A stretch of 64,000 bases of DNA from Bdellovibrionota bacterium. GTDB lineage: Bacteria > Bdellovibrionota > Bdellovibrionia > Bdellovibrionales > JAMPXM01. Each line of letters begins with the position of its first letter. Within the stretch, counting starts at the first letter, position 1. Below the pieces are notes generated by a model that made no database searches, was not told the origin of the DNA, and saw nothing but the letters and a program-made list of their open reading frames with translations. Where the stretch lies: contig CAUJGS010000041.1 in assembly GCA_963170185.1 (NCBI GenBank), positions 8,262-72,261 on the forward strand, given 5' to 3'. Shown piece by piece: positions 12,098 through 64,000 of the stretch. Position numbers and translations under genes: made by a program.

Positions 12098-13240
12098 ATG
12101 ATGAATTCAACTCAAATTCCAAAGTCTCAGTCGCTTGAAATCGAAATGGCAGCCATCTGGGCGCGTCAGGCTGCACGAGCCGCGTCGGGCGGTAACGCTC
12201 AGCCATGGGTCGTGAAGATAGAGCGTTTGTCTGACAATCGCCTTTTGTTTCGCTTAGGAATAGACTCTCGCTACTCTTGTCGGCCTTCGCCAATGGATGT
12301 CGATGGCAAGGCGGCGCTGATGGCGCTGGGGTGTTATGCGGTTTATGTCGAAGCTTTTGCGGCACTTGCCGGTTTCGAAGTTCAAAGTCGGTCTTTGGCG
12401 GCGGGGGAAACCGCGTGGGAGACAGAGGTCTCTCTGGTGTTTCGTCCGGTTGTTGGTGCGCGCAAGACGAAGTATTCCGAACAAGCGTTGCAGCAGCGTT
12501 GGACCGACCGTCGGGTTTATGAGACGGCGCCCTGTCCTCCTGATTTGCAGCGACGCATGCAAGATGTTTTAAAAGACTACGGCGGTATCCGCGCGACTTC
12601 GGTTCGCTCACGTATTGAGGCCGCAATCGGACCGTTAAGAAAACTCGAAGCCTTGCGCTGGAAAAACAAAAAATTTCGCGACTCGCTTTTTGAGGAGATC
12701 GACTTTTCCAGCGGCAAGGACGCTGGGGCGAGTAGGAAAATTCCCGCCTCACAACTGGGGGTTGAGGGGTTTGATCTTTTATTTTTGCGCTTGATGCACG
12801 GGTATCCCGCTTTGCGCACGATTTTAAGTATGGGTGGGTCGGAGATCGTCGCAAGAAAAACAGTGCCTCGCTTGCTTCGAGCTTCGTCGGGGGTTTGGTT
12901 TCTTCAGGCCGAAGTGAAATCAAACGCGGCCGTGTTTGATTTGGGAAGGTGCTTTCAGGAGCTATGGCTTGTCGTGAACGATTACGGCTATTCCTTTCAG
13001 CCCATAGGACTGCCTTTGGTGGCACTTTCTTATTGGAGCGGCGACAGTTGCGGGATCGGTCAATCGCCCGCGCAGACCGGTGTCGTGCGGGAGGTAACAG
13101 GGGTGCTTCGGGAGAAATTCGACTTAGACTTAAAAGAACTTGTTCTGGGCTTTCGCTTTGGCGCGACGAAAATCTCGCAAAGTGTTTCGTCAAGACTGAG
13201 CCCGCGCGCGGAACCGCAAATCGAAAGCAGCAAAACCTGA
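12098..13240 (+). CDS. tandem nitroreductase-like (Acg-family-like) FMN-binding protein
   Basis: Start at ATGATG 12098. Motif AARAASGGNAQPWVV resembles the nitroreductase SxxNxQPW signature. The ~380-aa length fits a two-lobed Acg-type protein. Confidence 0.6.
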   Translation: MMNSTQIPKSQSLEIEMAAIWARQAARAASGGNAQPWVVKIERLSDNRLLFRLGIDSRYSCRPSPMDVDGKAALMALGCYAVYVEAFAALAGFEVQSRSLAAGETAWETEVSLVFRPVVGARKTKYSEQALQQRWTDRRVYETAPCPPDLQRRMQDVLKDYGGIRATSVRSRIEAAIGPLRKLEALRWKNKKFRDSLFEEIDFSSGKDAGASRKIPASQLGVEGFDLLFLRLMHGYPALRTILSMGGSEIVARKTVPRLLRASSGVWFLQAEVKSNAAVFDLGRCFQELWLVVNDYGYSFQPIGLPLVALSYWSGDSCGIGQSPAQTGVVREVTGVLREKFDLDLKELVLGFRFGATKISQSVSSRLSPRAEPQIESSKT

Positions 13241-13380
13241 AGGACACAGCGACATATCCCGAATCTTTCGATGCCCCTGCATCGAAAGCAGCGAAGTCCG
13301 AAGGACGCAGCGACATATTCCAATCTTTCGATGCCCCTGCATCGAAAGCAGCGAAGTCCGAAGGACGCAGCGACATATTA
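13221..13380 (-). repeat. 2.7 tandem copies of a 60-bp two-hairpin element (family locus A)
   Basis: 13261-13320 and 13321-13380 differ at 2 positions; 13221-13260 is a degenerate partial copy. Each unit holds a perfect 10-bp stem (CTTTCGATGC/GCATCGAAAG, 4-nt loop) plus a small GTCC/GGAC hairpin. Confidence 0.95.
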
Positions 13381-14613
13381 GTTTCTGGCGTAGCCGTCGA
13401 AGTGAATGGGCCACGCGATCATGTCGCGTAGGGCGAATACGGTTCGAAAGTACGGAAGAACCGGAAGTGGCCAGGTGGCGCTTGGGTCGACCGCTTCGTA
13501 TGCGGAGCCGCCAAGAAACGAGGGCTCGTAGAGCGCGGAAAACACCTTGAGACGGCACTCTTTGAGCGCGCGAGCGATGATCTTGTCGAGTTCCAGATAC
13601 TGCGAGCGATACGTGCGTTCAAACGGCCAGCGTCCAGTGAGCTGGTCGCGCATGGAGAGTTCATTGGGCAGGCGATAATTGATCGCCGCGCAAAGGCCCG
13701 ACGGAAGCTTTTCGTCGCCAAAGCTTTTTAGTAGGCGTTCTTCGAGATTTAAGATGCTTAGGTAGCTCGAGCTTGCCAGCCAAGTCCGTCGGGCCCGACG
13801 TATGAGATTGGTCGGAAGCGGCTGCCATTTGGACTCTTGCAACCATCCGCGATCGACGTATTCACGATACGCGACACGCTCAAGATCAAGGATCGCAAGC
13901 CCGGTCAACAAGAGTGGCATGTACTCGGTGGTCAATAGTAGGCTTGCGAGCTTTCGTGTTTCGTGAAGAGCCTCTAGCGGTTGACCATCGAGAGTTCCTC
14001 TTAAGAGTCGAACCTTGGCGGCCGAGATGAGATCCAAAGTGTCTGGCGAGGGTATGAAATTGTAGGGAACGAACTGTCGTTTTTTTCCGAGCGCCTCCAA
14101 TGGAGACGCGGTTTCAATGTCCCAGATTTCGAATCCGCCGAGCTCCGAGAAGACGGCTGTTTCCCCTTTGAGGCGTCCACTTTCTAAAAAGCTTCGTCCT
14201 TTGATCCAGTCGTCTTGATAGCGCAAAAGAAATTCGCGCGACTCTGGCGGCACCAAAGGGGTTTTGCGGCCAAAGCTTGCTTGGTCGGCCGGTGCCGCTG
14301 GTGACCAGTAGAGTTTCGCATTGAGAACGGGACCTGCATTTTTTCCGGTTTTGGGCATCAGAGCCCGAAGCGGTTCGGCGGCGGGTGCGCTGTTTAAAAA
14401 CTCAAGATCGGCGCTGAAGGTGTCGTAGTGGCGCGCGTAGATCGCCTCGGTCTCATGAAGTTTCGTGGCGATGTTGCCGCGAAGAAGAAGCTCGACCGAG
14501 AGAATGTAGAGAAAAAAGAGCGCAATAAAGGACGGCGCTCCAAGAAGGAGCGCATGTCGAAGAGAGATTAGGCTGTTTGGGCTCGGAGCCACGTTCTCAC
14601 GTACGTCTTCCAC
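13378..14613 (-). CDS. hypothetical membrane-anchored protein
   Basis: 411-aa ORF with an N-terminal hydrophobic helix (LLLGAPSFIALFFLYILSVELLL). No domain recognised. Its 5' end overlaps the desaturase 3' end by 46 nt, so the true start may lie further downstream. Confidence 0.6.
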   Translation of the reverse strand: MEDVRENVAPSPNSLISLRHALLLGAPSFIALFFLYILSVELLLRGNIATKLHETEAIYARHYDTFSADLEFLNSAPAAEPLRALMPKTGKNAGPVLNAKLYWSPAAPADQASFGRKTPLVPPESREFLLRYQDDWIKGRSFLESGRLKGETAVFSELGGFEIWDIETASPLEALGKKRQFVPYNFIPSPDTLDLISAAKVRLLRGTLDGQPLEALHETRKLASLLLTTEYMPLLLTGLAILDLERVAYREYVDRGWLQESKWQPLPTNLIRRARRTWLASSSYLSILNLEERLLKSFGDEKLPSGLCAAINYRLPNELSMRDQLTGRWPFERTYRSQYLELDKIIARALKECRLKVFSALYEPSFLGGSAYEAVDPSATWPLPVLPYFRTVFALRDMIAWPIHFDGYARN

Positions 14614-17334: not shown

Positions 17335-19841
17335 TGTTTAGCAGGTATTTTCGCACAGATTTGAAGCGCTCGATGCGAGCCAACTGGATCGCGATTGCGG
17401 TTTTGTTTCTGAGTTTCCTTGGGCCTGTCGTTTCAAGCGTTTTAAGGTCCTCGGTGGAAAGCTTTTTGGTTTCAAATCAACGCCGCATTCTGACGGCGGA
17501 TTTAGCCATCACGGCCTATCGGCCGATTCGTGAAGATGAAGTGGACCGTGTTCGCGAAGTTCTCGGAATCAAGCGCGAAGTTCGAGAAGTCGAATTCGTG
17601 ACGATGGCTCTTGGCGGCGCCAGTCAGGGAAGTCTGATCGAGGTCCACGCCGTCGAGCCCTCTTTTCCGATTGATGGTGAATTCACATTTGCCGACGGAA
17701 GCAAAAAAGCCGGCGGTCCGACGGGAGAAAACCTCTGGGTGACTTCGGATGCGGCTCTTGCGTTGGATTTGAAATCTGGCGGACGATTGAAGCTTGGCCG
17801 CGTGGACTTTTTGATCGAAAAAGTCATCACGCAAGCCCCTGGTATTTCGCGTGGTGCTTTCGGTATGGCACCGCGAGTGTACATCCCGATCGAGCAGGCA
17901 AGTCGCACGGGGCTTACCGGGTTCGGAAGTCAGATTTATCACCGCGTGTATCTTGAGACCGAAAAGCTGGCGACGAGCGAGGTGATCAAGGAAACACTAG
18001 GGGATCCGGATCTGTTTTTGCGAACACCGGACGATTCCGTTCAGGGTATCGAACGCTTCACCGGATTTGTTTCGCTCTATCTTGCGGTGGTTTCGGTTTC
18101 GCTGTTTGCGCTTGGTTGGGCGGCGGCCTTTTATATTATTCGAACGCAAGCGATTGAACGCATGCGAGCAACGGCGATTGCGATTGTGTTTGGCGGATCG
18201 CGCAGCAGCATGCTCGGTTTTGAATTCGCTCGAACTTTGGCGCTGACGGCGATTGCCGCCGTGCTTGCGATGCTGGCAGCCTGGGGAGCCGCGGAGTTTT
18301 TAGAGCCCGTCATCGGCCAGGCGTTGGCCAAACAAGTGCCAGGCAAATTTGAAATCGTACTATCCATTAAGGATTTCTTAGGGCTCTTTGTAACCTCGCT
18401 TGTGTCGGCGGTTTTGTTCACGGCGCCATTCGCGCAGCGTTTGAGGTCCTCGCAGCCGCGCGAACTTTTTGATGACTCGGCTCTTGCGCCACCTCAGGAA
18501 TCTCGCAGCGGCGTGAGGTCGATGCTTGCTTTGTCGGCGGTTGGATTTCTCACATTGGCGGCGCTTGCGAGTTGGATCACGCGCGACGTAAAACGTGGTT
18601 TTCAGCTAGCCGCGGGATTTGGCGCGGCGGCAGGCGTGATTCATTTTGCGGGAATCGGTTTGTTTCGAGCGCTTTCAACGGTGTTTCGTGCAACAGGATC
18701 AAGTGCCTTCTTGCGCTTGGTCGGGCTTCAACTTTCACGCGCGCGATTTGCCGTGAGGCTTTCGTTTCTGGCTATCGGGCTTTCGACCTTTGTGGCGAGC
18801 AGTGTCGGGCAGATCATGATTTCTCTTGGCGACGAGTTGGGAGCGGGCGGAAAGCTTGATTCGGCGCCAGATTTTTTCCTGTTCAACATTCCGGAGTCGG
18901 AAGTCGAAAACCTGCAAGCAACGGTTGCCAAGTACGGCGTGAGCCTCGATTTTCTTTCGCCGATGATATTGGCGCGTCTTCAGGCCAAAAACGGCGAAAC
19001 CATGGAGAGCGAGCAGTTTCGAAAGTTCCCGGTTCGCATCACTTGGCGCGAAAAAACCATCGGTAGCGAAAAGATCGTCAAAGGCAAACCTCTTCACGAA
19101 AAGTATGACCCAGCCGTCGACGGCGATTTGCCGCTGATCAGCGTCGAATCGCGCTTTCTTGAGCGAAACAAACTGGGAATCGGTGATCGCCTTCTCTTTG
19201 ATGTACAAGGTGTCCCGGTCGAGGGGAAGATCGGCAACGTTCGTTCGGTGCGGTGGACGGATTTCAATCCAAACTTTTTCATCTCGTTTCAGGGCGGAGT
19301 TTTAGAAGACGCTCCAAAAACCTGGCTTGCGAATATAAAATCCAAGTCACGTGAGGACCGCATCCCACTGCAGGCCGAGATCGTGCGCAACTATCCCGAT
19401 CTTTCTTTGATCGATGTGAGTCAGGGCTTGGAAAAAATCGTCGCGCTCATGCGATCCATCTTGGGGCCGGCCGAGCTTGCGGCTTGGTTGGCTTCGGCGT
19501 TCTCGGTTTTTGTTTTGGTCACGATCGTCGTGCATTCGACCCGACTTCGCGCACATGAGATGAATCTCTTTCGGATACTCGGCGCAGAGCCGCGTCGCGT
19601 TAGGCTGCTCTATCGAGCTGAGTTTGCCCTCGCGTCGGGCTTTGGGTCATTGCTTGGAAGTGTTGGCGGCCTGGGGTTGGCTTGGTTTATCTCGATTCAG
19701 TTCTTGGATTTGGAGTTTCGCGCCGACCCGGTTCGGTTGCTGCTAACAATCTTGGCAGGATTGGCTCTCGGAACCTCTTTGGGAGAGTGGCTCTATCGCC
19801 GTACAGCTCGAGGACTTGGAATCGAGCGACGGGTCGTGTAA
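17334..19841 (+). CDS. FtsX-family ABC transporter permease (YbbP-like, duplicated FtsX domains)
   Basis: 835 aa with two clusters of TM helices separated by large loops. TGATG overlap with the ATPase gene. Confidence 0.8.
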   Translation: MFSRYFRTDLKRSMRANWIAIAVLFLSFLGPVVSSVLRSSVESFLVSNQRRILTADLAITAYRPIREDEVDRVREVLGIKREVREVEFVTMALGGASQGSLIEVHAVEPSFPIDGEFTFADGSKKAGGPTGENLWVTSDAALALDLKSGGRLKLGRVDFLIEKVITQAPGISRGAFGMAPRVYIPIEQASRTGLTGFGSQIYHRVYLETEKLATSEVIKETLGDPDLFLRTPDDSVQGIERFTGFVSLYLAVVSVSLFALGWAAAFYIIRTQAIERMRATAIAIVFGGSRSSMLGFEFARTLALTAIAAVLAMLAAWGAAEFLEPVIGQALAKQVPGKFEIVLSIKDFLGLFVTSLVSAVLFTAPFAQRLRSSQPRELFDDSALAPPQESRSGVRSMLALSAVGFLTLAALASWITRDVKRGFQLAAGFGAAAGVIHFAGIGLFRALSTVFRATGSSAFLRLVGLQLSRARFAVRLSFLAIGLSTFVASSVGQIMISLGDELGAGGKLDSAPDFFLFNIPESEVENLQATVAKYGVSLDFLSPMILARLQAKNGETMESEQFRKFPVRITWREKTIGSEKIVKGKPLHEKYDPAVDGDLPLISVESRFLERNKLGIGDRLLFDVQGVPVEGKIGNVRSVRWTDFNPNFFISFQGGVLEDAPKTWLANIKSKSREDRIPLQAEIVRNYPDLSLIDVSQGLEKIVALMRSILGPAELAAWLASAFSVFVLVTIVVHSTRLRAHEMNLFRILGAEPRRVRLLYRAEFALASGFGSLLGSVGGLGLAWFISIQFLDLEFRADPVRLLLTILAGLALGTSLGEWLYRRTARGLGIERRVV

Positions 19842-40126: not shown

Positions 40127-40638
40127 TTCTTCTTGTTCGCTTTGTCGTTGGCTTTTGCGATGGCGCGTGCGAGTTGAAGTTCGCGCCCGATTCGATAGAG
40201 AATGACCTGCTCCTCTAAACCGTCGCTTTTTTGTGTGACGGGTTCCGAGAAAAAGTCCCTTAAAATTTCAGCGCGCTTGGTGATCTGCACTTTGATGGCG
40301 GGTTTGTCTTCCGAGCGTCCGCGGACGAGACGCACGAGAAGTCGATAGCGATACCCTGGTGAGAGCGGCCCTGGTTCGAGAGGCGAACGAAACCGCGCTT
40401 CACCTTTGATGAAGTCCGTTTCGAAAATTCCGGCTTCGGTATTATCCACCTTTTGTGGGTAGCGAATCATGGACTGCTTGAGGGCGATCTCGACATCTTC
40501 GTAGTTGGCATAGAAGACCCGGCTATAAGGACCGCTCGAATTTTTGCGCTCTTCAAGACGCTGAGTCGCCGTCGTGCAAGCCGACAACGACAACAACAGC
40601 GATATGGCTAAGAAAGAAATATTGCCGCGCAACTGCAC
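40117..40638 (-). CDS. lipoprotein, function unknown
   Basis: GTG at 40638 gives M-QLRGNISFLAISLLLSLSAC (lipobox). In-frame sequence upstream overlaps the preceding gene. The start codon lies inside a repeat-family hairpin. Confidence 0.6.
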   Translation of the reverse strand: MQLRGNISFLAISLLLSLSACTTATQRLEERKNSSGPYSRVFYANYEDVEIALKQSMIRYPQKVDNTEAGIFETDFIKGEARFRSPLEPGPLSPGYRYRLLVRLVRGRSEDKPAIKVQITKRAEILRDFFSEPVTQKSDGLEEQVILYRIGRELQLARAIAKANDKANKKNQP

Positions 40639-40675
40639 GGCAAGCAGTACCGACCGGAGGTCGGTACGCCACCTA
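40621..40675 (-). repeat. two-hairpin repeat family, locus C
   Basis: Minus strand reads TAG-GTGGCG-TACCGACC TCC GGTCGGTA-CTGC-TTGCCGTGC AGTT GCGCGGCAA-TATTT. From CTGCT to ATTT it matches locus D at 27 of 31 positions. Confidence 0.8.
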
Positions 40676-42202
40676 TAGATCAACGGCGCTTTTTGAGACG
40701 TGCGAGAGTCCGTCGATAATGCTTGGGCTGAGACTGACGTTGGTTCCTTGAGTAGCAGCACCGAACAAAACCTCCCAGCGATGCGAGCCGGAGATCGCGC
40801 TTCCCATTTCAGGAAGTTCCATCGAAGCACTCCAGCCAGTCGCATAAACGTCCCAAACCGGTGACTTGCGGTCGATTTGCATCGAGCCCGAGGTCACACG
40901 ATCGATCTTGTTCAGCGTCGCATACGTCGCAGCAGGTGTCACGGAAGCAACCGACGACTTCGGCGGATTAAGGCCGAGAGTCGAGCCGCGCGCCGTTGGG
41001 GCTTTTGCGATATCGAGGAATTCAAACTTCGTCGTCCCCGTGTTGGGAGAAATCACGACCGACATAGCGTCAGCGCCCGCACCTGAGCTTGGTGCGTTGG
41101 TGTCGCGAAGTGCGCCGACGAGGTAGCCAGGAACGCCTTTTGGCGAAACGAGGCGACGTGTTTCCGAAGGTCCAAGTTTTTTGACGTCGGTTGGATACAG
41201 AAGCCCACCGTTTTCTGCGACGGAAACTGCGAGCATCGTTTGCGAGCTAGCAAAACGAGGTGCCGTCACGTCGACCTTTGCATCAAATACGGTGTCAGTG
41301 ATCGAGAGATCTTGGTTGGTAGACGGGCTAGAAAGCGCAATGTCTTTGATCGTGGCACTTTTAAATTCGAAGTAGTTTAAGATGTCGAAGAACGACTTTC
41401 CGGCGCGAAGATCGTCGACGACTTCTTCAAATGGGAAGCGCGCGTGAGCCGCGACCATTTTCCAAGTGCGTGGTTCTGGCAAATAGCTGCGGAACACGGG
41501 CTTGTCGAGCGTGATCGTGAAGAAGTAGCGCTCTTGCTGTTTAGGCAAGGAGACGTTGCTTGGAATATTGATCGACTGCCCCATGATCGTGATGGTGTCG
41601 ACTTCAGGGCTCACGAGATCTGTTACTTGCAACGATGCCAGTTGATCTTTGCGCAAAGCCGGGAAGATGACGCCGACGTCGACCCAGCCGTCTTGCTTGA
41701 GATTTTTAAAGCCAGTCGCTTTACCTTTAAGTTCCATGCGTTGCGCTTGGATCTTGCGGCGAACCTGAAGAGCCAGAGCTTGAGGTGCCTGATTCATCCA
41801 TGTTGCGCGAACGAAGCCAGCGACTTCGACAGTGATAGGCTGAGCGTCTGTCCATTGTGCGGGCAGGGCGATCTTGCCATCAGCGTCTGTTGTGAGCACG
41901 TTTCCAGGGAATGGGACATTTTCGCGTGCCCCGATCATGACCTTTGCTTGCGCCAAAGGCTGACCGCCTTGGTCAGCAACAAGCAGGTGGCCAGCGATAG
42001 GAGCCAAGGCTGTGATGCCCGCTTGGTTAGAGTCTGATGGGATCGAAACTTGTTCACGCGAGCAGGCTGCTGCGGAAAGCAGCAATGCCATGGGCAGAAC
42101 CACCCAGAACTTGGATGATAGGTTGGCTGACAGTTTGAATGACTGTTTGAATGACTGTGCAGTCTTGTTGGCCCGAGTCGTTTCCGTCTTTGGTCGAGTC
42201 AT
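40673..42202 (-). CDS. large lipoprotein, function unknown (carboxypeptidase-regulatory-like N-terminal fold possible)
   Basis: Lipobox LLLSAAAC. Segment GHLLVADQGGQPLAQAKVMIG...TTDADGKIALP resembles CarboxypepD_reg-type beta-sandwich domains. Confidence 0.6.
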   Translation of the reverse strand: MTRPKTETTRANKTAQSFKQSFKLSANLSSKFWVVLPMALLLSAAACSREQVSIPSDSNQAGITALAPIAGHLLVADQGGQPLAQAKVMIGARENVPFPGNVLTTDADGKIALPAQWTDAQPITVEVAGFVRATWMNQAPQALALQVRRKIQAQRMELKGKATGFKNLKQDGWVDVGVIFPALRKDQLASLQVTDLVSPEVDTITIMGQSINIPSNVSLPKQQERYFFTITLDKPVFRSYLPEPRTWKMVAAHARFPFEEVVDDLRAGKSFFDILNYFEFKSATIKDIALSSPSTNQDLSITDTVFDAKVDVTAPRFASSQTMLAVSVAENGGLLYPTDVKKLGPSETRRLVSPKGVPGYLVGALRDTNAPSSGAGADAMSVVISPNTGTTKFEFLDIAKAPTARGSTLGLNPPKSSVASVTPAATYATLNKIDRVTSGSMQIDRKSPVWDVYATGWSASMELPEMGSAISGSHRWEVLFGAATQGTNVSLSPSIIDGLSHVSKSAVDL

Positions 42203-48807: not shown

Positions 48808-51800
48808 ATGAGTTTTCGGCTTCGGAAAATCTCATTTTCGTCCCGATTGCTTGGGTCGATTTTAATTTCTTTTTCGGTGTTGATGTCTCCTTTCGGAGGC
48901 ATCGGCCGGGCGAATTCGTCGACCGATTCGTCGACAGTTACTCCCTCCGAGATGCCAGGTGTCGCTGCGGATACAATCCCGGACAACGCGACGGAAGAGA
49001 TGAAGGCTCTTCTTGCGTTGGAAATTCCCGAGACTAAACTTGAAGTGATGCAGACCAGAGGCGCTCGCGCCTTGATGGCCGGTCACGGCAAAGCCATTCA
49101 ACAGCTTGTTAGCGATATGGCGACAAAACTTGGTCTGGCCGGTGACCCGAAGGATGTCTCCGTCGTCTTGAATGCTGATCCATCGGTTAACGCCTTTGTC
49201 ATGACGGATCCGGCTACTAAGAAAGTCACGATCGGGTTGAATGCGGGGCTTTTGTCATTCGTCAAAAACCAGGACGAATTGGCCCTTGTGCTCGCACACG
49301 AGATGACCCACATGAATCCCGCGGTCCTTCGCCACCGGGCGGATTCAGGTACACTTGCGAAAATCACGAGTGCGATTCCCAAACAGATTCAAGGCCGACA
49401 GGCTGAGGAGCTACGTGCAGACCTTGGCGCTGTTCAGCGGATGATCAAGGGCGGGTACAACCCTTGGGGCAGCTACGATTTTTTCAAGAGGCTCTCCGCC
49501 AAGCGGGACCTGTCGGGAAATAGCACCGTCAGAACTCTTGTGTCCATGATCTCGACACATCCGGACCCGCAGCTTCGCATGAGCGTGGTGAAGAGCTACA
49601 TCACTGCGAGGCAGGCCGAAGAGAACTTGATGGAAGTGACCGGCAAGTACAACGGCTTTCCAAAAGGGTTGGAGGCCATGCGCTGGAGACTTGCGGCGTA
49701 TCGTGGATTGGCGGACGTCAATAAAGTGAAAGCGGGTGTCGCCGCGGTCGCAGCTGTAGGGGCCCAAGTCGCTACGGCGCTGATCGTTTCGCCGGAGACG
49801 GCCGATGCCATGGGAGTTTTGTTGCGACCGGGAACGGATCTCATCGGGATGGTGTCTTCGGTGAAGGAATTGATATTGAGCCCGGCGGAACTAGGGGCAC
49901 CCATCTTAGGTTCTGGTTATTTACCAAGTTCGGGGGCTGGTTCGTACGGAGCGGTTTCAAGTTTGGGAGGAGAGATCGCCGAAAAGGCGAGCTATCTAAA
50001 AAATGTGCCTCTTGAAAAGGTAGCAACCGTCGTCGGGTCATTGGTGGGGTCAGGAGTTGCTGGGCGCTGGGCGATCAATCGCGTTCGAGCAGATGCAAAG
50101 AGAGCAGCTGCGGATGCCAAATTCGAACGACTCGTGCAAGAGGTTTTGGAAAAGTCGAAAACAGCGATGGATATTCGCAAGGCGATTTCCAGAACCGAAG
50201 ACGCGGTGAAGCTCTATGCAGAGCTTCATAAAAAAGGTCAGTTCGATCGCACGAAGGTGCTTGAGGCGGCGCTGGCTTCGAATGAGAAATCATTCTCTGG
50301 CTTACGTCTCACAGACGAAGTCTACTCAATGATTCGAAGTTATGGCTATGATCCCAGATCTACAGTTGAGTATCTCAACTCTCTCGTTAAAGAAGAGGCT
50401 GCAAAACGCCAACTTCTCCTCAATGAAATTGTTGATGACTCAATTGCGAGGCTTCCTGCATCGCGGACACGGGCCATGATCGCGACCATAGGAAGAATGC
50501 CCGAAGTATACGTTTCACGGCCGGATATGCAAGATTCACTCGATAGGCTTATCGAGACTGCTAAAAAAAGAGATCCGTCGCTTCGGTTCTCAACGAGAAT
50601 TGAGAGAATCAAGCTTATTCAAAAACAGACAGGCCGAATCGGGAGTGCCGTGACACTCTCAAATGGTGTATCTGAGACTGCGGCTACTCCCCCACGTCTT
50701 CTCGAGGTTATGGAGATTGCCGAGAAGCTAAGAACTGCGGACCGAAGCGTGATTGCACCGAGGGGATCGCCTCCGCCGAAGGGAGCGTCCGTTAATCGTG
50801 TCGAAGTTCGCCGTTTGCGTTATCTGAATTTGCCAGAGCTTGTGATGCAGAATATCGATTCTTGGGTGCAGGAAGTAGAGGTTCCCGGCGAACGAGGCGT
50901 CAGGGCTGATACCACATTGAGAGCCGCGATTCGAGATGCAACCGAGATGTTGCTCGATGGTGGGTCTGGCGAGAGACACATTGAATTCAATCGTAAAGTA
51001 CTTCAAGTCTTTGCTGAACGTGTATCGAAAACAGATAGTGTTCGCCTGAGTCGGTTACCTGGCAGTGCTGGTTTGACGGCGGCATCCTTCACCAAGACTT
51101 CCAAAATTCCTGGGATCAAGCCTGTAATGTCTTTCGACGACACGACGGAAAAGTTGCGAGAGCTCAATAAATGGAACAACCTGTTTTTAAAAAAGGTAGA
51201 GGGAGCGAATTCCGTCGTCGAACTCGATGATCTTGTGCAAAAACTGCTTGTCGAGCGAGAGAAATTAGATCCGAACGATTCGCCGATATCGCTGCTTCAT
51301 AAACATATAGAGGCGAGGCCGGACCTTTTAAAGACTTCCGAAGATATCGACCGCTTGTTGAAGAGCCCATACTTATGGAACCAGCTTGGCACGGGCTACG
51401 GAGATCTCGATCAGAAAATCTTGGATGATATGCGCTCCAGGTACGGAAGTAGCAGTTCGCAGGCTGATCTTTGGAAGTATCGACCAGAGGCTTCCGAACG
51501 CCTGCAAAAGCGTATTCTTACGAGACTAGAAGAGCTCGGAAAATCGCCGAAGACGTTCGATGAACGACTTAAAACCTGGCAAATGTTTGTCGGTCGCGGA
51601 GTCACGAACACGACAGACACGATGTTCGCCAAACTTTATGAAGAGGCCGACCCCAAAACTCGTGGACGTCTGCGTGAAATTTCGCGAGGGCGTATTTGGG
51701 AGCCACGTCTTCGTGCAAGTATCTTGAAGGATCGTATCGCCGAAACCTCGGAGTATAAGCAGCTTGTCGCGACGTCTCGTGACGCTCAGCTCTCGCGTGA

Positions 51801-53808
51801 GGCGGAGCGGCTTCGCATCTCGAATCTCCGCCAGGTGATTCGTGTGGCGGAGCAGGAGTTTGACTCGCGTGGGCCTGACTATGATCGTGTCGTTGAATCG
51901 GTTTTAAACGATGTTCGCTCGTCGGCTTTGGAGACTCGTTATGCCGAACGGTATCGTGGGCCGGTTGGCCAGGGCCAGTCGGACCTTACCATGCGAACAC
52001 TTTCGGGTTTGGTCGAGCGAATGCGAAAAATGGAAAAGAATGAAAAGTGGGAGTTCATTCTGTGGCTTCGTGGCGAAAAGGCTGCAAGCAAATCTATAGA
52101 AGAAATGTTCCCGGCGATTGGGTCGGACCGTGTTGCACGCATGTACACACTCTTGCCTGACTATCAAAAGGCCCTTGTCATTGATTCGGTTTTGGATTCG
52201 AAAGAGGGCTTGCTGCCAACGGCTGATGTGAATTCGTTCTGGGGTCGAAAGATTGTGGATCATCTAATTGGCGGTGGGAGTTCGGATAGCGCCGATACCG
52301 TGAAGAACCGTCAGATCGCTCGTGAGATTTTGGAGTCTTACTTGGCGAGCTTTGATGGGCCGGGTGCTAATAAAGCTCAGCGCACCTTGGTGCTGTCTTA
52401 CATGCTGGCGAGTAAGTCAGGTGATGGCTCCAACGGCAAAGTTCTTAAACAGGTTCTCGAGGCGATGGGTGCAAGTGGTGTCAAGATCGGTCAGTTCTTG
52501 GTTGCAACGGACATTCTCGGGGAAGAGGAGAACAAAGTTCTTCGTCAGCTTCAGGATCAAGCCAATGTTCCATTTCGAACGCGGATCTACGAAGATCTAG
52601 CGAAAGCAAAAGGCATTCAGCCCCCTAAAAAGGTCGATGATCTTTTGGGAGCCGCATCGATCAAATATGCGGTCCAGGCCTTTGAAGTGGAAGACGGAAA
52701 TCCGTTTGTTTTAAAGGTTCTTCGTTCCGAGGCGTCTGCGACGATCGATCAGCAATTTGCACGACTGCGATCGATGTCGGACTCTCTCGTTAAAAAATAT
52801 GGTGGTAAGTACGGAGTTCTGCGCTCGGTTATCCGTGCTTCTGAGGAAGCCGTCAGGCGTGAGCTCACCTTGTCTAACGAAACAAAGAGCTCGGCAAGGG
52901 CCGCCGAAATTTATCGCGCCGTTTCGGATTTCGAGGTTCCAAAGGAAAGACTGGTGGACTCGAGTTTGATCAAATCGGATTTCGCGCATGGCGGATCGAT
53001 TCACGATCTCGATCTCGAAGAACGAGGTCGTGTGGCATCGAGAATTATGGAAGTCGAACGAGATATTCTTTTTGGCGACAAAGATGTGATCGAATTTGAT
53101 CCGGATCGACACCCTGGAAACTTCAAGGTCGAAATCACGGGCGAGGACAAAGTTCGGGTTCGACCGATCGATTTTGGACAGTTCATTAAGATCACAAAGC
53201 AAGAACGAGATCAGGTCATCGATCTTTTTGCCCAGTCGGCGATTTTGGACAAAACCGGACCGACCAAACGGTCGATCGACCGCATCGCGGAGTCTTTAAA
53301 ACTCTCGTCCGCGGAAAAGTCCAAACTCATGAAAAGTTTGAAATCAGGATTTCCGTCGAAAAACCGAACCGGTTTGGCGTCGTACTACACTTTGTTGGCG
53401 GCGCTTGAAGATGCAGGAAAGCCACAGCCAATTCAGTTCTTCGATTTCGCCCGTGCGGTTGTTCAACACAACCAATACGAAGACATGGTTATGAGCTCTC
53501 TTATGGCCAAGGGAATGAGTGAATCTGAAGCCAGGGCCGCGGTTCCGACTCCACGGGAAAAGCTAGTTCAACTGGTCAAGGCGAGTGCGGATAGACAGAT
53601 CGCAACCGGTACTGGAGTGCCGGAGTTTTCGAAAACGGACAAGGTTCGGATTGTTTGGAATCGCACCCAAAAGAAGGCCGACGAGATCGTCGGTGACATC
53701 AAGACCCGAGTTCGAGCGGCTACCTTCAAGAAGGTTGTCGATCCGACGCTTGTGCTCGGTTCCGATTGTGCAAAGTTTTTTAAAGATATCAAGCGAAGCT
53801 GGGATTAA
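48808..53808 (+). CDS. 1666-aa exported fusion protein: N-terminal M48-type Zn peptidase, long helical middle, C-terminal ABC1/UbiB-type atypical kinase domain
   Basis: Signal-like N-terminus. M48 motifs LAHEMTHMNP and STHPDPQLRM. ABC1 motifs VKIGQFLVATDIL, GAASIKYAVQAF...FVLKVLR, DPDRHPGNFKV, IDFGQF. Confidence 0.8.
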   Translation: MSFRLRKISFSSRLLGSILISFSVLMSPFGGIGRANSSTDSSTVTPSEMPGVAADTIPDNATEEMKALLALEIPETKLEVMQTRGARALMAGHGKAIQQLVSDMATKLGLAGDPKDVSVVLNADPSVNAFVMTDPATKKVTIGLNAGLLSFVKNQDELALVLAHEMTHMNPAVLRHRADSGTLAKITSAIPKQIQGRQAEELRADLGAVQRMIKGGYNPWGSYDFFKRLSAKRDLSGNSTVRTLVSMISTHPDPQLRMSVVKSYITARQAEENLMEVTGKYNGFPKGLEAMRWRLAAYRGLADVNKVKAGVAAVAAVGAQVATALIVSPETADAMGVLLRPGTDLIGMVSSVKELILSPAELGAPILGSGYLPSSGAGSYGAVSSLGGEIAEKASYLKNVPLEKVATVVGSLVGSGVAGRWAINRVRADAKRAAADAKFERLVQEVLEKSKTAMDIRKAISRTEDAVKLYAELHKKGQFDRTKVLEAALASNEKSFSGLRLTDEVYSMIRSYGYDPRSTVEYLNSLVKEEAAKRQLLLNEIVDDSIARLPASRTRAMIATIGRMPEVYVSRPDMQDSLDRLIETAKKRDPSLRFSTRIERIKLIQKQTGRIGSAVTLSNGVSETAATPPRLLEVMEIAEKLRTADRSVIAPRGSPPPKGASVNRVEVRRLRYLNLPELVMQNIDSWVQEVEVPGERGVRADTTLRAAIRDATEMLLDGGSGERHIEFNRKVLQVFAERVSKTDSVRLSRLPGSAGLTAASFTKTSKIPGIKPVMSFDDTTEKLRELNKWNNLFLKKVEGANSVVELDDLVQKLLVEREKLDPNDSPISLLHKHIEARPDLLKTSEDIDRLLKSPYLWNQLGTGYGDLDQKILDDMRSRYGSSSSQADLWKYRPEASERLQKRILTRLEELGKSPKTFDERLKTWQMFVGRGVTNTTDTMFAKLYEEADPKTRGRLREISRGRIWEPRLRASILKDRIAETSEYKQLVATSRDAQLSREAERLRISNLRQVIRVAEQEFDSRGPDYDRVVESVLNDVRSSALETRYAERYRGPVGQGQSDLTMRTLSGLVERMRKMEKNEKWEFILWLRGEKAASKSIEEMFPAIGSDRVARMYTLLPDYQKALVIDSVLDSKEGLLPTADVNSFWGRKIVDHLIGGGSSDSADTVKNRQIAREILESYLASFDGPGANKAQRTLVLSYMLASKSGDGSNGKVLKQVLEAMGASGVKIGQFLVATDILGEEENKVLRQLQDQANVPFRTRIYEDLAKAKGIQPPKKVDDLLGAASIKYAVQAFEVEDGNPFVLKVLRSEASATIDQQFARLRSMSDSLVKKYGGKYGVLRSVIRASEEAVRRELTLSNETKSSARAAEIYRAVSDFEVPKERLVDSSLIKSDFAHGGSIHDLDLEERGRVASRIMEVERDILFGDKDVIEFDPDRHPGNFKVEITGEDKVRVRPIDFGQFIKITKQERDQVIDLFAQSAILDKTGPTKRSIDRIAESLKLSSAEKSKLMKSLKSGFPSKNRTGLASYYTLLAALEDAGKPQPIQFFDFARAVVQHNQYEDMVMSSLMAKGMSESEARAAVPTPREKLVQLVKASADRQIATGTGVPEFSKTDKVRIVWNRTQKKADEIVGDIKTRVRAATFKKVVDPTLVLGSDCAKFFKDIKRSWD

Positions 53809-54233: not shown

Positions 54234-54353
54234 TGCTGGCGAGCATGAACTTCTGGTTGTCAGTCAGGCAAATTGTGATCGAGACGAGGTGGATTTTATT
54301 GCTGCGGAAGTCAGTTTGTTGCTGAAACACGGAAGAGGCGTTAGGCTGTAAGT

Positions 54354-54590
54354 ATGGAAATGTGGCTGATCTTCGCGGCGATAGCGGTTTTTATTGGAGG
54401 TTCGGCGGTGTACCTCGTGTTCATGATCTTTTTCCCGGAATGGGTGGGGATCACGGGAGAGACGGCTTTGAAGGCCGAGCAGAGTCACCGTGGAGACGTG
54501 CCTCATGAAGAGGGGCCAGACCCTTTGAAGGGTGTATCGAAGAGCGCTTCTGGTCGCGCTTCTGGGCCGCCGGAGTCTTCAAATAAGTAA
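54354..54590 (+). CDS. small single-TM protein
   Basis: MEMWLIFAAIAVFIGGSAVYLVFMIFF TM helix with a charged tail. A strong terminator begins 8 nt after the stop. Confidence 0.5.
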   Translation: MEMWLIFAAIAVFIGGSAVYLVFMIFFPEWVGITGETALKAEQSHRGDVPHEEGPDPLKGVSKSASGRASGPPESSNK

Positions 54591-54597
54591 TTCGAAA

Positions 54598-54629
54598 TAA
54601 AAAAGAGCCGGTATTCACCGGCTCTTTTT
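54598..54629. terminator. bidirectional intrinsic terminator
   Basis: AAAAAAA-GAGCCGG-tattca-CCGGCTC-TTTTT, with A- and T-tracts on both sides. Confidence 0.85.
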
Positions 54630-54644
54630 CGTCGAGTGCTAGTA

Positions 54645-54733
54645 GAGGGTGCGGTTCGTAGCGACACCCCTCAAATCTCGCCGCGCCACTGCACGGCGAG
54701 CAGCTTAGGGCGAAGCCCTAAGCGACACCCTTA
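54645..54733 (-). repeat. two-hairpin repeat family, locus D (one full copy plus a partial second copy)
   Basis: Minus strand reads TAAGGGTGTCGCT-TAGGGC TTC GCCCTA-A-GCTG-CTCGCCGTGC AGTG GCGCGGCGAG-ATTTGA, then GGGGTGTCGCTACGAACCGCACCCTC. Confidence 0.85.
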
Positions 54734-55066
54734 GATCGCGCGACAGCCATCCATCCAGCAGCTGCGGCTTACTTGGTAGCAGCTACGAAGAGCCGCATCG
54801 CGAGCCTCGGGCATGTTGCGGCCTCGGCCGTAGAATGGTGCTCCACGCTGGTTAACAGCTTTGCACTGAACACCGCGATAGCCTGGACGGCTTGGGCGAC
54901 CTGGACGGTAGTACAGCGAATGTGAGTCAGCAGACTCTTGACCGCCGCTTGCGAGAATCGCCATCTCTTCGAAGCTAGATGTCGAGTGATCCATCGCCAT
55001 TGCTGGAAGAGCAAATCCTGACGAGATGAGAAGTGCCGAGCCCACCGAGAAAACCATACGACGCAT
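54731..55066 (-). CDS. small secreted Cys-containing protein (DUF4189-like?)
   Basis: SD AAGGGGG before ATG 55066. Signal peptide MRRMVFSVGSALLISSGFALPAMA. C-terminal ARDAALRSCYQVSRSCWMDGC. Confidence 0.6.
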   Translation of the reverse strand: MRRMVFSVGSALLISSGFALPAMAMDHSTSSFEEMAILASGGQESADSHSLYYRPGRPSRPGYRGVQCKAVNQRGAPFYGRGRNMPEARDAALRSCYQVSRSCWMDGCRAI

Positions 55067-55402
55067 ACGTGCCCCCTTAGTATGTGGTGAAGGTGCCTTG
55101 GCCTGTCTTGGTGTCAGACTGGCTATCGACACAGCGTGTTTTCGTACTCGAAAAGCGCATGCTAGGTCGAGGGGCAAGATCCGGACCATTTGAAAATGGA
55201 TTTTATTCGCCGTTTTTCTGGGGGATCGTGACACCGGTGGCAAGAAGTCCTGGTTTGAGTCGAATCTGTGCTGCAGCTCGTCTTGGACTGAGACGGACTG
55301 TCGAATGGCGCTCACAATCGGTTTCTCGGGCAAAAGCGGGGGTATCTTGGATTTCAGAAGAGAAACGTTCCGATGAGAACTAATTCGACGAGCGAGGTTT
55401 CG

Positions 55403-55728: not shown

Positions 55729-57033
55729 ATGGAAAGATCCTCCGCTTTTTTTCATACACTTTTGGTTCTCGTACTTTTTTTGCCGGTAACGGCGCCGGCT
55801 TTTGAGATCGACTCGGAATATCGGTCGATCGCGACAGAGCGCGGATATGCGGGGCTGCTTGAGTCACTATCGCCGAAACCCCTTGATAGCGAGTATCAAT
55901 CTGACATTTTAACTTATAGCGATTCGCCATTCTCGTTGCTTGCGAGTTCCGATATTTCTCCGGGAAACTTCGCGGCGGGCCAAGAGCGCGTCGCCGGGAT
56001 TTTCTCGACCTCGGCGGGGAGTTTGTCTGCAACCCAGTTTGATTTTCGCCTTCGAGCGAAATTTGCCAGAGCCCTAAGCGACAGTCTGCGCTTTGTGTAC
56101 TTGCGTTCGGAACACGAAAACTATGAAGAACAAGCGTCGGCATCGTTTGTCGAGCTCCAGTATCAGATTGCGGGAAGCCGACTTTGGTTGGCGGCTTACG
56201 GAAGCCTTGCACGTATGAAACGAGAAGATGACGTGGGCTTTGCGGCAATATGGCGAGATCCAAGCGAGGTTTTACGGCGCGAGCATCGCCTCTATGTGAC
56301 GTTTCCCGACTTCACACGTTCCGAACGAAACGATGCCGGAGATCGTTTTCAAAGTGGTCCGACGGTTATCGGTTGGAAGTTTGAAAGCCAAAATGCTTCG
56401 GGTGTCTACCGTTCGTCGGAAGTTCGTCGCGAGTCCGACGTTGATTGGCGCGATAGCGCATCGGGCATAGAATACGGAACGACGATGGCCTCGTTCAAAC
56501 GTGTCACTGATCGGTCGTCATTTCGGGCGCAGCTAGATCGCAAACGAATTGTCAAAAACACATTTGACGCTCTCGGTGTCGTCTCGGCGAGAGAGGGGCT
56601 TATACGCGAGCGTGAACAGCTCGAGTACCGTCGTCGAACGATGACTCAGGAGTTTGAAGGCGGCGTTGCTTGGGTAGCTAGGCGTTGGGAAGACGTCGTC
56701 GGGCGTAAGCTCATGCACGAAAACCTCATGTTCTTTTTTGATTGGCGGCCTTTGCCGGTTTTGAGCGATGACCCGGCTATGTGGCGACCGCAGCCAGGTC
56801 CCGAGCTAGGGCTTGAGGCCACACGTTTTGCCAAGCATGGCGATGCGAGTCTCGGTTCGCCAACGACACGTGATCTGGCCTGGGAGTCACGTTTGAACAC
56901 GCGTTATCGTTGGGCGTTTAGTCGCGATGAAGAAACCATCGCGGAGCTAGCGGTGGCGCTCACGTTTGATCTGGATCGTGCCGAAGGTGGCCTCTTTGAG
57001 GGCGGCCACGGGCAGTTTCTTATGAGATTTTAG
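55729..57033 (+). CDS. putative outer-membrane beta-barrel protein
   Basis: Signal peptide MERSSAFFHTLLVLVLFLPVTAPA. The C-terminus ends ...GGHGQFLMRF (terminal aromatic residue typical of OMPs). Confidence 0.6.
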   Translation: MERSSAFFHTLLVLVLFLPVTAPAFEIDSEYRSIATERGYAGLLESLSPKPLDSEYQSDILTYSDSPFSLLASSDISPGNFAAGQERVAGIFSTSAGSLSATQFDFRLRAKFARALSDSLRFVYLRSEHENYEEQASASFVELQYQIAGSRLWLAAYGSLARMKREDDVGFAAIWRDPSEVLRREHRLYVTFPDFTRSERNDAGDRFQSGPTVIGWKFESQNASGVYRSSEVRRESDVDWRDSASGIEYGTTMASFKRVTDRSSFRAQLDRKRIVKNTFDALGVVSAREGLIREREQLEYRRRTMTQEFEGGVAWVARRWEDVVGRKLMHENLMFFFDWRPLPVLSDDPAMWRPQPGPELGLEATRFAKHGDASLGSPTTRDLAWESRLNTRYRWAFSRDEETIAELAVALTFDLDRAEGGLFEGGHGQFLMRF

Positions 57034-62103: not shown

Positions 62104-62131
62104 CGACTGGCGACTGGCGACTGGCGACTGG
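62104..62131. repeat. 4 x 7-bp perfect tandem repeat (CGACTGG)
   Basis: cgactgg cgactgg cgactgg cgactgg lies between the convergent MutT-like and RAYT-like genes. Confidence 0.95.
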
Positions 62132-62165
62132 CAGGTGGCGGCTGCATTCGGAGTTCGGCACGCCA

Positions 62166-62942: not shown

Positions 62943-62948
62943 CCGCGA

Positions 62949-62977
62949 AATATATGTGACCGATGGTAGAGAGTCAA
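62949..62977 (-). promoter_or_regulatory. putative sigma70 promoter of RAYT-like copy 2 (leaderless geometry)
   Basis: Minus strand reads TTGACT (62977-62972), 17 nt, TATATT (62954-62949). ATG 62942 begins 7 nt after the -10 hexamer. Confidence 0.45.
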
Positions 62978-63195: not shown

Positions 63196-64000
63196 TTATT
63201 TGAGGCGGTCGCCGAAGTGGCTTAAAAAGCGGCGGTGAAGGTCTTTGTCGCCGTAAATGTCGGTTGAGTCGGAAAGTTCGTTCCTCGAGTAGCCGGAAGA
63301 TATGTCGTGAATCTTTACGGCTCCACTGGCCGAAACGGCGGAACCGGATTTGCTGACGGAGGCGGCATTGGTGAGATCGGCATGAATGTGAGTGGTGTGG
63401 ATGGAGGACGCATTGGTGGATACGGCATTGGTGGGATCGGCATGAATGGGAGTGGTATGCGTGAAGGAAGCATGTGCGAGAGTGGCGTGAATGCGCCAGG
63501 TGCGAAACGAAGCCGTGAATTTCGTCTCAGCGCTTTCAAGTTCTGAGGCGGTACTCGATCTTGTAGTTGAACCGGGAACAGAAACATTGTCGCCCACCGC
63601 GGGAACAATCTCGATTCGTTTTCTTGTTTGATCTAGCGGTTGATAGCGAAGCTGTTCGAAAATAAAGGGGCGCAAACGTGCTTCGCCCTCTGCTTCCAGC
63701 CAGTCGAGTTTTTCTTTTGCTATCGCGGATTCTTCGATGGAGTGGGGAGGGGGAAGAAGATCGATCCACCCGGCGCGGGCATCGGGAAACGAATCGGCCT
63801 CTGGAACATAAGGCTTGATGTCGTAAATCGGAGTGCCGTCTAAGAGATCGTGGTGCGAGATGCGAACCGAGCGACCTTCGATTCCCAAAAGCCGAACACA
63901 GCTTAAACCTAAGCCGTTTGGTCGATGTGGCGCACGTGTTGCGAAGACGCCTTTTAACGAACCGTCACCGCGCGGTGGCTTTGTTTGCGGAAGCCAAGAC
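63196..64000 (-). CDS. trmO: tRNA (t6A37) methyltransferase TrmO/TsaA (5' end outside window)
   Basis: The frame stays open to the window edge. FATRAPHRPNGLGLSCVRLLGIEGRSVRISHHDLLDGTPIYDIKPYVP is the TsaA-domain signature. The C-terminal domain has a repeat-bearing insertion. Confidence 0.85.
   Translation of the reverse strand, partial: SWLPQTKPPRGDGSLKGVFATRAPHRPNGLGLSCVRLLGIEGRSVRISHHDLLDGTPIYDIKPYVPEADSFPDARAGWIDLLPPPHSIEESAIAKEKLDWLEAEGEARLRPFIFEQLRYQPLDQTRKRIEIVPAVGDNVSVPGSTTRSSTASELESAETKFTASFRTWRIHATLAHASFTHTTPIHADPTNAVSTNASSIHTTHIHADLTNAASVSKSGSAVSASGAVKIHDISSGYSRNELSDSTDIYGDKDLHRRFLSHFGDRLK

Follow-up and report, generated by a model that had tools for sequence, protein, structure and literature searches.

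The unit behind a gene for a small secreted protein

Immediately past the stop codon of a minus-strand gene for a small, secreted, Cys-rich protein there lies a short unit consisting of two hairpins, which is followed, still reading along the minus strand, by a partial restart of a next unit and then by a canonical intrinsic terminator (Table 1). All of these are found within a 64-kb stretch of DNA, the whole of which was analysed and which is referred to here as the window. A Pfam search with the protein found no family, and its orthologues terminate at the corresponding residue (..CRAI*, ..CRSI*, ..CRPI*), with TAA (54731-54733) serving as the gene's native stop. The unit, here termed C1, begins 2 nt (GG) past that stop and is 58 nt long. 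This order of stop codon, unit, partial restart, and terminator is exactly as had been read in a first-pass annotation of the same DNA. Truncated restarts of this kind are seen in about 10 of the 21 arrays of the repeat family described below. The terminator (-24.8 kcal/mol, z -5.9), by contrast, is outside of that family, being located 28 bases beyond the restart and about 40 nt past the unit; a consensus terminator scanner did not flag it, that is, the call rests on folding.

Hairpin 1 of C1 pairs GCTTAGGGC (54723-54715) with GCCCTAAGC (54711-54703) about a TTC loop. The stem thus pairs as previously described, except that it is 9 bp long rather than the 6 bp then given. Hairpin 2 pairs CTCGCCGTGC (54700-54691) with GCGCGGCGAG (54686-54677), i.e., 10 bp about an AGTG loop. 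The linkers and loops match, upon sequence comparison, those of the units found at 13.3 kb, and 4 of the 10 pairs of hairpin 2 are exchanged, relative to those units, for other Watson-Crick pairs. The sole non-Watson-Crick pair, T54693.G54684 of hairpin 2, is U.G in a minus-strand transcript but C.A if the plus strand is considered instead, with the same U.G present in the copy at 40.6 kb. All of these latter observations were made in the first-pass annotation and stand as made. Folded as RNA, C1 reaches -36.2 kcal/mol (RNAfold; z -4.3), a stability attained by 0 of 200 shuffles, whereas the opposite strand folds at -31.3 kcal/mol, the weaker fold resulting from the turning of the wobble into C.A. 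The covariance-model match encompassing C1 (54668-54732) is of 84 bits (E 1e-23).

Table 1. Features of the window, in order of position
Feature	Position	Strand	Basis and remarks
Y1a, Y1/HUH transposase-like gene, 212 aa	8107..8745	-	Pfam Y1_Tnp, 24.7 bits (cut-off 23)
Degenerate third unit, locus A	13220..13255	-	Sequence
Unit A2, tandem copy, identical to A1, period 60 nt	13256..13315	-	Covariance model, 67 bits
Unit A1	13316..13380	-	Covariance model, 81 bits; 2 nt past TAA of gene 13378-14613(-)
Unit B	40612..40676	-	Covariance model, 78 bits; 1 nt past TAG of gene 40673-42202(-)
Canonical intrinsic terminator, GAGCCGGT GAAT ACCGGCTC + T6	54599..54629	. (A-run on one flank, T-run on the other)	Folding
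Partial restart of next unit, 13 nt, GGGGTGTCGCTAC	54658..54670	-	Sequence
Unit C1 (GTGTCGC, hairpin 1, TG, hairpin 2, tail ATTTGA)	54671..54728	-	Sequence, fold, covariance model, covariation
Gene for small secreted Cys-rich protein, 111 aa	54731..55066	-	ORF list; also called in public assembly
Internally deleted relic unit, TGGCGTGCCGAACTCCG-AA-TGCAGCCGC	62138..62165	-	Half-pattern match; flush with TGA stop of Y1b
Y1b, Y1/HUH transposase-like gene, 258 aa	62166..62942	-	Pfam Y1_Tnp, 26.3 bits (cut-off 23)

Additional copies within the window

Two covariance models were run over the window with filters off, yielding full units at E values of 1e-18 to 1e-23 and, across all 64 kb, nothing beyond the four full units below E 0.07. 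The content of the window comes to three loci, rather than the four which had been counted at first, and these represent four full units along with two partial units and one internally deleted relic. At locus A the native stop has been kept relative to the orthologue in relative L073, and a convergent ORF (11951-13240, plus strand) comes to its own stop, TGA (13238-13240), within the degenerate third unit. At locus B it is hairpin 2 of the unit that holds the sole plausible starts (GTG, 40636-40638; TTG, 40630-40632) of a downstream lipoprotein gene. Window copies are mutually 61-67% alike, each is 89-91% like a copy found at a non-orthologous site in another genome, and all are on the C-rich strand.

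The relic scores under the covariance-model threshold. The half-pattern by which it is matched occurs 8 times in the window versus 1.3 times expected, with 4 of those 8 matches being the known units; among the non-unit matches, TGCAGNNGC follows only the relic (62165-62138). A hunt for further relics, using exact 11-13-mers along with blastn-short, gave nine 12-mers versus 7.4 in shuffles. As these counts are at the shuffled level, neither a 13-mer adjoining Y1a (8040-8052) nor a 14-mer at 56070-56083 is claimed as a relic.

Covariation and strand asymmetry

Taken over the family, the unit is approximately 58-60 nt in length and carries on one strand two unlike hairpins, unrelated to each other in sequence, with constant feet, loops, and linkers (RTGTC, CTGCT, TGCAG, AGATT). 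Its freely covarying portion is the stem centres. Units occur either singly or in direct head-to-tail arrays, many of which have a truncated restart at their end. The constant parts consist of the single-stranded RTGTC ahead of hairpin 1 (21 of 22 copies), the hairpin feet (GC..GC and CT..AG), and the hairpin tops, C-TYC-G for hairpin 1 and TGCAG..GC for hairpin 2. CTGCT and TGCAG are constant in 22 of 22 copies, with the 5 nt between them variable. The two ends of the unit, i.e., RTGTCGC and AGATT (or instead a direct RTGTCGC restart), are without inverted similarity.

Covariation was analysed over those 22 copies and 19 pairs, with 500 shuffles, as well as the sliding of the partner column by 1-3 positions, serving as controls. 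Pairing is seen in 91% of cells and both-sided changes at 12 of the 19 pairs, with none of the 500 shuffles matching any main measure, and the sliding of partner columns causes pairing to fall to about 40%. A gap-free MAFFT alignment as submitted to RNAalifold, which is independent of the model, yields both hairpins again. Pairing in hairpin 2 comes to 99.5%; hairpin 1 pairs perfectly in many of its sequence variants, but in the MAG subtype that is most common it has a 3x3 internal loop. The suggestion, originally made upon comparing window copies, that structure is conserved over sequence is therefore upheld. Stem centres which drift, in combination with a foot and loop which do not, are what would be expected of hairpins that are read by a protein at those constant places.

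The asymmetry between strands that had been noted also extends across the family. At the wobble position 11 copies have U.G and 11 have U-A, with C-G in none; G.T cells number 14 versus 3 for A.C; of 21 copies, 15 fold more stably as the sense strand (p 0.003); and the consensus folds at -26.5 in sense versus -22.1 in antisense. The loop AGTN, however, accompanies U.G just as the loop AGVG accompanies U-A, so the U.G/U-A split, in tracking two old subfamilies, may reflect very few independent events.

Position relative to genes

All copies are intergenic, with none in divergent or promoter regions. The protein genes which lie upstream are unrelated to one another, encoding EF-G, an SNF2 helicase, a sigma-54 activator, DNA polymerase III delta (holA), Nfu, GST, a beta-lactamase-family protein, a pseudopilin, and a trypsin-like protease, and units are found as well behind RNA genes, i.e., those for tRNA-Thr (twice), tRNA-Leu, tRNA-Arg, and 6S RNA. 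At 18 of the 19 loci with a definable neighbour the unit's 5' end is toward the 3' end of a same-strand gene. The distance from stop codon to TGKCG is 0-3 nt at 10 of 13 protein-gene loci, the individual spacings being 0, 0, 0, 1, 1, 2, 3, 3, 3, 3, 10, ~67, and ~97 nt. Stops preceding units are TAA and TAG, along with TGA for the relic, and the unit behind tRNA-Thr begins at the final tRNA base. With regard to a target-site duplication, TA often precedes the unit but is part of the TAA or TAG stop, and the 3' sides of the empty sites of relatives are unalignable. A TA target site was considered as a general rule and rejected, as all three stop types occur and as internal junctions differ.

Sense orientation behind the upstream gene, as had been proposed, is weaker as an argument than these counts suggest, because in convergent gaps either orientation is 'sense' to one gene. 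Informative in this regard are just the co-directional loci, which are 6 sense (B, L004, L009b, L010, L014, L025) versus 1 antisense, the latter (L027) being a unit found between a minus-strand gene's stop and that gene's terminator. Orientation has no link to GC skew, the sense strand being C-rich at 12 loci and G-rich at 10.

Three arrangements relative to canonical terminators are seen. Where the array constitutes the whole of the gap, as at four convergent loci (window A, L006, L007, L019), a canonical terminator is lacking; such a terminator is found downstream of the unit in window C, L026, and L009a, and upstream of it in L013 and L004. Given all three of these, the unit would seem usually to be transcribed, though it is no standard terminator.

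Extent and turnover of the repeat family

The pattern TGKCG-N7-CTYCG-N7-CTGCT-N5-TGCAG, which is without flanking information, was scanned against one genome per species (185,579 species), giving 27 loci. Seventeen of these are strong copies (61-86 bits), all found in three MAGs (Bdellovibrionales or Bdellovibrionaceae), none of which is the window's own organism. Exact copies of the window's genes were met with in Logan assemblies only, and the source is presumably an uncultured, Bdellovibrionota-like bacterium. Matches in Rhizobium, Pandoraea, Kribbella, and other non-Bdellovibrionales reach at most 19 bits and were set aside as chance. The same pattern run over 241 million metagenome records gave one real copy, and plasmid and phage collections gave no match to the unit. 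Per fragmented MAG the strict pattern yields 6-9 loci, and the window has three in 64 kb. An Rfam scan of the whole window at gathering thresholds returned tRNA only, a permissive scan of 54560-54800 returned a best match of 21 bits versus a cut-off of 55, and no relevant paper emerged from literature searches on Bdellovibrio REP or RAYT repeats. The element had not been recognised as belonging to a described family, with which the lack of Rfam matches agrees, and the repeat family is a real one, apparently undescribed, with copies found in just a few uncultured, Bdellovibrio-like bacteria.

Orthologous sites differ in what they hold. At locus B, a strain with 99% protein identity (L068) possesses the element with an extra, second unit and a leftover half-hairpin, and with a compensatory A-T to G-C swap in hairpin 1; in relatives at 84, 77, 76, 73, and 57% identity, the element is absent and unrelated short spacers are found. 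The C-terminus of the upstream protein (..SAVDL*) nonetheless is constant across all compared relatives. At locus C, an 87% relative has a unit directly past TAA, with a different hairpin 1 and with the contig ending inside of that unit. A 73% relative (L072) has a degenerate copy (24 versus 78 bits), next to which the terminator stem is perfectly conserved, and in a 61% homologue no element was found. At locus A the element is absent from an 85% relative, in which the two convergent stops are 4 nt apart, with the C-terminus of the upstream protein again conserved. The native stop has been kept at all three window loci. No copies were found over about 190 kb of these relatives, as against three loci in the 64 kb of the window.

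Copies with identical cores also occur at unrelated sites: L026 and L014 possess identical (100%) 54-nt cores within one MAG, these being located behind Nfu and tRNA-Arg. Seven contigs terminate in or beside a unit. Gain, expansion, loss, and decay at orthologous sites, with the neighbouring terminator intact, fit a mobile repeat. The signature as read from sequence, that is, subfamilies, bursts, tandem expansion, and decay, is that of a dispersed repeat rather than that of a conserved cis-regulatory RNA.

Y1/HUH transposase-like genes

The window also contains two genes, Y1a and Y1b, which resemble Y1/HUH transposases. The route to these genes was by way of synteny, with the 85% relative giving a Y1_Tnp match. 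The two proteins are 69% identical over 187 residues, with NHLHLHIKLG as the HUH motif and RDY[IV]R[LI]NQ as the tyrosine motif. Among NCBIfam profiles the best for them is that of REP-associated tyrosine transposases, which comes ahead of IS200, at 22-23 bits versus an equivalog cut-off of 80. The AlphaFold model of Y1b is of low confidence (pLDDT 51 overall, 70-85 in the core), and the best 30 PDB fold matches of this low-confidence model are all IS200/IS605-family or RAYT transposases, mostly as crystallised on DNA hairpins and with ISDra2 and IS608 TnpA, bound to end hairpins, found at the top.

No intact unit flanks either gene, the closest being 4.5 and 7.4 kb away, and a search for hairpin repeats flanking the Y1 genes found none. 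Y1a is syntenic in relative L073, where 21 kb shows no element and where no repeat family was found. The short MAG loci showed no Y1 gene, and RayT of E. coli, when run by phmmer over 319 kb as translated in six frames, gave no match. That probe, however, is insensitive since it missed both of the Y1 genes which Pfam later found, and for this reason absence from the short MAG loci says little. Y1b may be viewed as a candidate mobilising enzyme for the repeat units.

Comparison with known systems

REP and BIME sequences are short, GC-rich, extragenic stem-loops, present in many copies and favouring gene 3' ends and convergent gaps, which display compensatory stem changes and which can influence mRNA stability (PMC3184786). 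REPs in turn are thought to be mobilised by single-copy Y1 transposases, the RAYTs (PMC3337134, PMC3116915). The unit is like these in its short, stable, GC-rich, intergenic hairpins, and in its multiple copies per genome, and two Y1/HUH genes for which the best profile is RAYT are found in the same 64 kb. A REPIN or BIME, though, consists of inverted pairs of one REP, whereas here there are two unlike hairpins per unit and direct repeats; the REP head GTAG is missing, the RTGTC found ahead of hairpin 1 being different; and, with regard to the REPIN-RAYT pairing, Y1a and Y1b are very divergent (22-23 bits versus 80) and are without intact flanking units. Units here furthermore begin 0-3 nt past the stop codon. 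In E. coli, REPs located within 15 nt of stop codons reportedly lower translation.

Members of IS200/IS605 share with the unit two subterminal hairpins on the same strand, imperfect pairs that are strand specific, and a lack of terminal inverted repeats. Their left and right hairpins nevertheless resemble each other, while those of the unit do not. For the unit, moreover, no fixed 4-5-nt target is definable, there is no GC-skew strand link, and units are about 60 nt and tandem. The attC sites of integrons likewise are found directly past a gene's stop and in gene orientation, conserve structure over sequence, and act as a single-stranded hairpin of one strand. An attC, however, folds as one long hairpin that is imperfect and bears RYYYAAC/GTTRRRY cores, and such sites occur next to intI in arrays of cassettes, whereas the unit has two hairpins, has no GTTRRRY core in its consensus, and is scattered behind housekeeping genes.

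SPRITE, of pneumococcus, is a terminator-like repeat found near convergent genes' 3' ends, while MIRUs are tandem, intergenic units of 40-100 bp that vary in copy number among strains and whose ends overlap flanking genes (PMC3184786). SPRITE, at about 105 nt, includes a terminator-like motif, whereas the unit has no U tract and is adjoined by canonical terminators, and the two are unrelated in sequence and host. The unit is like a MIRU in being tandem and in varying in number between strains (the extra unit in L068), but MIRUs carry ORFs, whereas in the unit it is pairing rather than peptide that is conserved. A MITE-like element, one of the roles proposed in the first-pass annotation, was rejected given the missing terminal inverted repeats. 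The unit, that is, fails tested defining features of MITEs, IS200/IS605 derivatives, terminators, MIRUs, and attC sites. It is outside of strict REP/REPIN as well, lacking inverted pairs and a GTAG head and being of only putative RAYT linkage. 'REP-like', which also was among the roles first proposed, is the best label for the family.

Interpretation

The explanation which I favour, with some reservation, is that locus C represents a single copy of a dispersed, REP-like repeat which is specific to its lineage, with mobilisation by Y1/HUH proteins and with any effect as a 3' trailer being secondary. The repeats are best read as a REP-like, non-autonomous, two-hairpin family which belongs to a narrow lineage of Bdellovibrionales and on which, as single-stranded DNA, Y1/HUH-like proteins probably act. 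Units would be non-autonomous elements copied via a single-stranded DNA intermediate, with hairpins read strand-specifically by a transposase of RAYT/IS200 type, for which Y1a and Y1b, as two divergent paralogues found in the window, with the relic at the Y1b stop, would be the candidate enzymes. Copies presumably would survive only at harmless sites, namely convergent gaps and gene 3' ends, where they would be transcribed as 3' trailers. There the sense hairpins might, in the manner of REP stem-loops, bar the way to 3' exonucleases and conceivably slow terminating ribosomes. The RNA may plausibly have such a role in the trailer, but the effect would be secondary rather than why the family exists. 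Several observations run counter to mobilisation by Y1/HUH proteins: No intact unit flanks either gene, a Y1a orthologue is found in L073, which shows no element, profile scores are far under the RAYT cut-off, the structure model is of low confidence, and hairpins are unlike each other within units that repeat directly. Orientation, moreover, lacks the link with GC skew that replication-coupled Y1 transposition would predict, and the spacing of 0-3 nt from all three stop types, as well as from a tRNA 3' end, is unaccounted for.

Less probable is that the unit is primarily a functional RNA, its 3'-trailer hairpins serving to stabilise transcripts, direct processing, or bind a clade-specific protein, with dispersal a by-product. 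Consistent with this are the facing of 18 of 19 loci toward a same-strand gene's 3' end (with co-directional loci at 6 sense versus 1 antisense), the lack of copies in divergent or promoter regions, the placing of units 0-3 nt from stops at 10 of 13 protein-gene loci, and an orientation that is independent of GC skew. Consistent too are the tolerance of U.G in half of copies by a hairpin 2 that keeps no mismatch, the better fold of the sense strand, and a terminator located downstream of the unit in window C, L026, and L009a, which places the unit inside of the transcript. It was from strand asymmetry and conserved structure that the first-pass annotation argued for function as RNA. Such asymmetry would be expected as well, however, if a Y1/HUH transposase, of which the window encodes two candidates, reads one DNA strand as a hairpin, so RNA function is only one possible reading of the conservation. 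Against a primarily RNA role, sites are absent or decayed in close relatives even as the adjacent terminator is conserved, in L013 and L004 the unit lies beyond the terminator, the unit of L027 is antisense, and the upstream genes have no function in common. Where a hairpin directly abuts the 3' end of a tRNA (L015, L040), it would impede maturation rather than aid it. The U.G/U-A split, furthermore, amounts to two loop-marked subfamilies (AGTN versus AGVG), i.e., few independent events.

A further possibility, which is speculative and to my mind improbable, is that units have been moved by Y1a and Y1b, perhaps with one enzyme per hairpin type, with insertion that is coupled to transcription and not to replication, the folding strand of the element entering the exposed non-template strand immediately past a gene end, whether an mRNA's stop codon or the 3' end of a tRNA or 6S gene. 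Such coupling would explain sense orientation, a flush position behind three stop types, and the absence of a GC-skew bias.

Quite improbable is that transcription is terminated, in an unconventional and partly bidirectional manner, by the unit itself, copies of which would have spread around the genome. Units indeed are found where protein, tRNA, and 6S genes have their 3' ends, arrays take up all of the gap at window A, L006, L007, and L019, where a canonical terminator is missing, and SPRITE supplies a precedent (PMC3184786). The tail following hairpin 2, however, is AUUUG, AUUGG, or AAUUC, with 2-4 U at most and no U tract at the hairpin, canonical terminators either follow the unit in the same direction (L009a, window C) or precede it (L013, L004), and unit B is found between two co-directional genes, overlapping the start codon of the second.

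Very unlikely, in turn, is that the unit is a site for binding of a protein to duplex DNA, of nucleoid, gyrase, or IHF type, via the constant dyad CTGC-N7-GCAG. The constancy of CTGCT and TGCAG in all 22 copies about a variable 5 nt would suit such a site, and BIMEs bind IHF, Pol I, and gyrase (PMC3184786), but neither intrastrand covariation nor a strand-specific wobble is required for duplex recognition. Scarcely credible, lastly, and rejected given its substitution pattern and unconserved peptide, is a MIRU-like, translated mini-ORF in which the RTG of RTGTCGC, 0-3 nt past the stop at most loci (TAGTG, TAAGTG, TAATATG), would be a start coupled to that stop, since, even with a frame that is open across 18 of 20 copies and full tandem periods of 60, 60, 69, 69, and 63 nt, all three frames are without stops in most copies, stem swaps change the peptide non-conservatively (FDAGAS, FRAVAR, RRAVAR), early stops occur in window C and L010, and other periods are 56, 58, and 61 nt, such that just 8 of 13 spacings are multiples of three.

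Significance

REP-type repeats and domesticated transposases are best known from the Gammaproteobacteria. The REP-like family favoured here has a distinct architecture, in that its two hairpins differ from each other, its units repeat directly in tandem, and these units abut gene ends, and it is found in relatives of predatory bacteria that are known from metagenomes only. Units interrupt assemblies and shift apparent start codons, with one lipoprotein gene starting inside of a unit, and as unit number differs between strains that are 99% identical, units matter to annotation and to strain typing. Flush placement in the sense orientation, if due to targeting rather than to selection, would bear upon how single-strand DNA transposases choose their sites; insertion that is transcription coupled, if true, would represent a new targeting mode for those enzymes as well as a REP-type system beyond the known RAYT groups. 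If that same placement instead reflects RNA function, then the unit would be a portable 3'-end module.

Units and neighboring genes

Units of the element, a two-hairpin REP-like repeat, are seen behind RNA genes at two loci outside the window, 0-15 nt from the 3' end of a 6S RNA gene at one and 0-15 nt from that of a tRNA cluster at the other (table).

Unit B has a protein-coding neighbor. The lipoprotein gene found 3' of this unit possesses as its sole plausible in-frame starts a GTG and a TTG, both within hairpin 2 (window 40630-40638, minus strand), and its product has the signal peptide ..ISFLAISLLLSLSAC. Element-free orthologues have their own start, 19-24 codons upstream of the Cys. In L068 (2328-2483), a strain with 99% protein identity here, repeat units add 93 nt, i.e., 31 codons, in frame, between the hairpin-2 GTG and the lipoprotein Cys. 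At the same site in L059 (about 11560-11620; 73% relative), and also in L060, there is a terminator and then, in tandem, four copies of the 15-mer CTGGTTTCATTTTCT.

At locus A the stop codon (TGA, 13238-13240) of a convergent ORF, 11951-13240(+), with a weak nitroreductase match, lies inside the third, degenerate unit of the array. L073, a relative carrying a Y1a orthologue, has a convergent gene here that is non-orthologous to that ORF, and synteny between window and L073 thus breaks exactly at the array.

Features in the window and at related loci, with coordinates
Feature	Location	Remarks
6S RNA gene	L004 4768-4954	60 bits
tRNA cluster	L015 4611-5130	Thr-Tyr-Gly-Thr
Peptidase_M48 + ABC1 protein	window 48808-53808	1666 aa; domains taken from equal-sized counterpart in L072 (73% relative at locus C)
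GCCAGTC x4 heptamer tandem repeat	window 62104-62131 (minus strand)	immediately 3' of relic unit behind Y1b
Direct repeats (GGAGGCGGCATTGGTGAGATCGGCATGAATG...)	window 63358-63518	spacing 45/15 nt

At locus C a consensus terminator scanner reported no terminator over window 54300-55400; despite this miss, a hairpin plus T6 at 54599-54629 is, by folding, an obvious terminator. Inside a coding region, minus-strand positions 56070-56083 repeat 14 nt from the 5' part of unit C without a mismatch (TGTCGCTTAGGGCT); this match is at approximately chance level and may be what the first-pass annotation had counted as a fourth locus.

Surroundings of the Y1 genes

The direct repeats at 63 kb are probably a repetitive coding stretch. 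The motif TTGACTnnnTACCATCGGTCAC is conserved 5' of all three Y1 transposase-like genes (window 8746-8775 and 62943-62975; L073 about 17985-18010), with that upstream of Y1b reading TTGACT, 17 nt, TATATT. This motif looks like a common promoter or operator.
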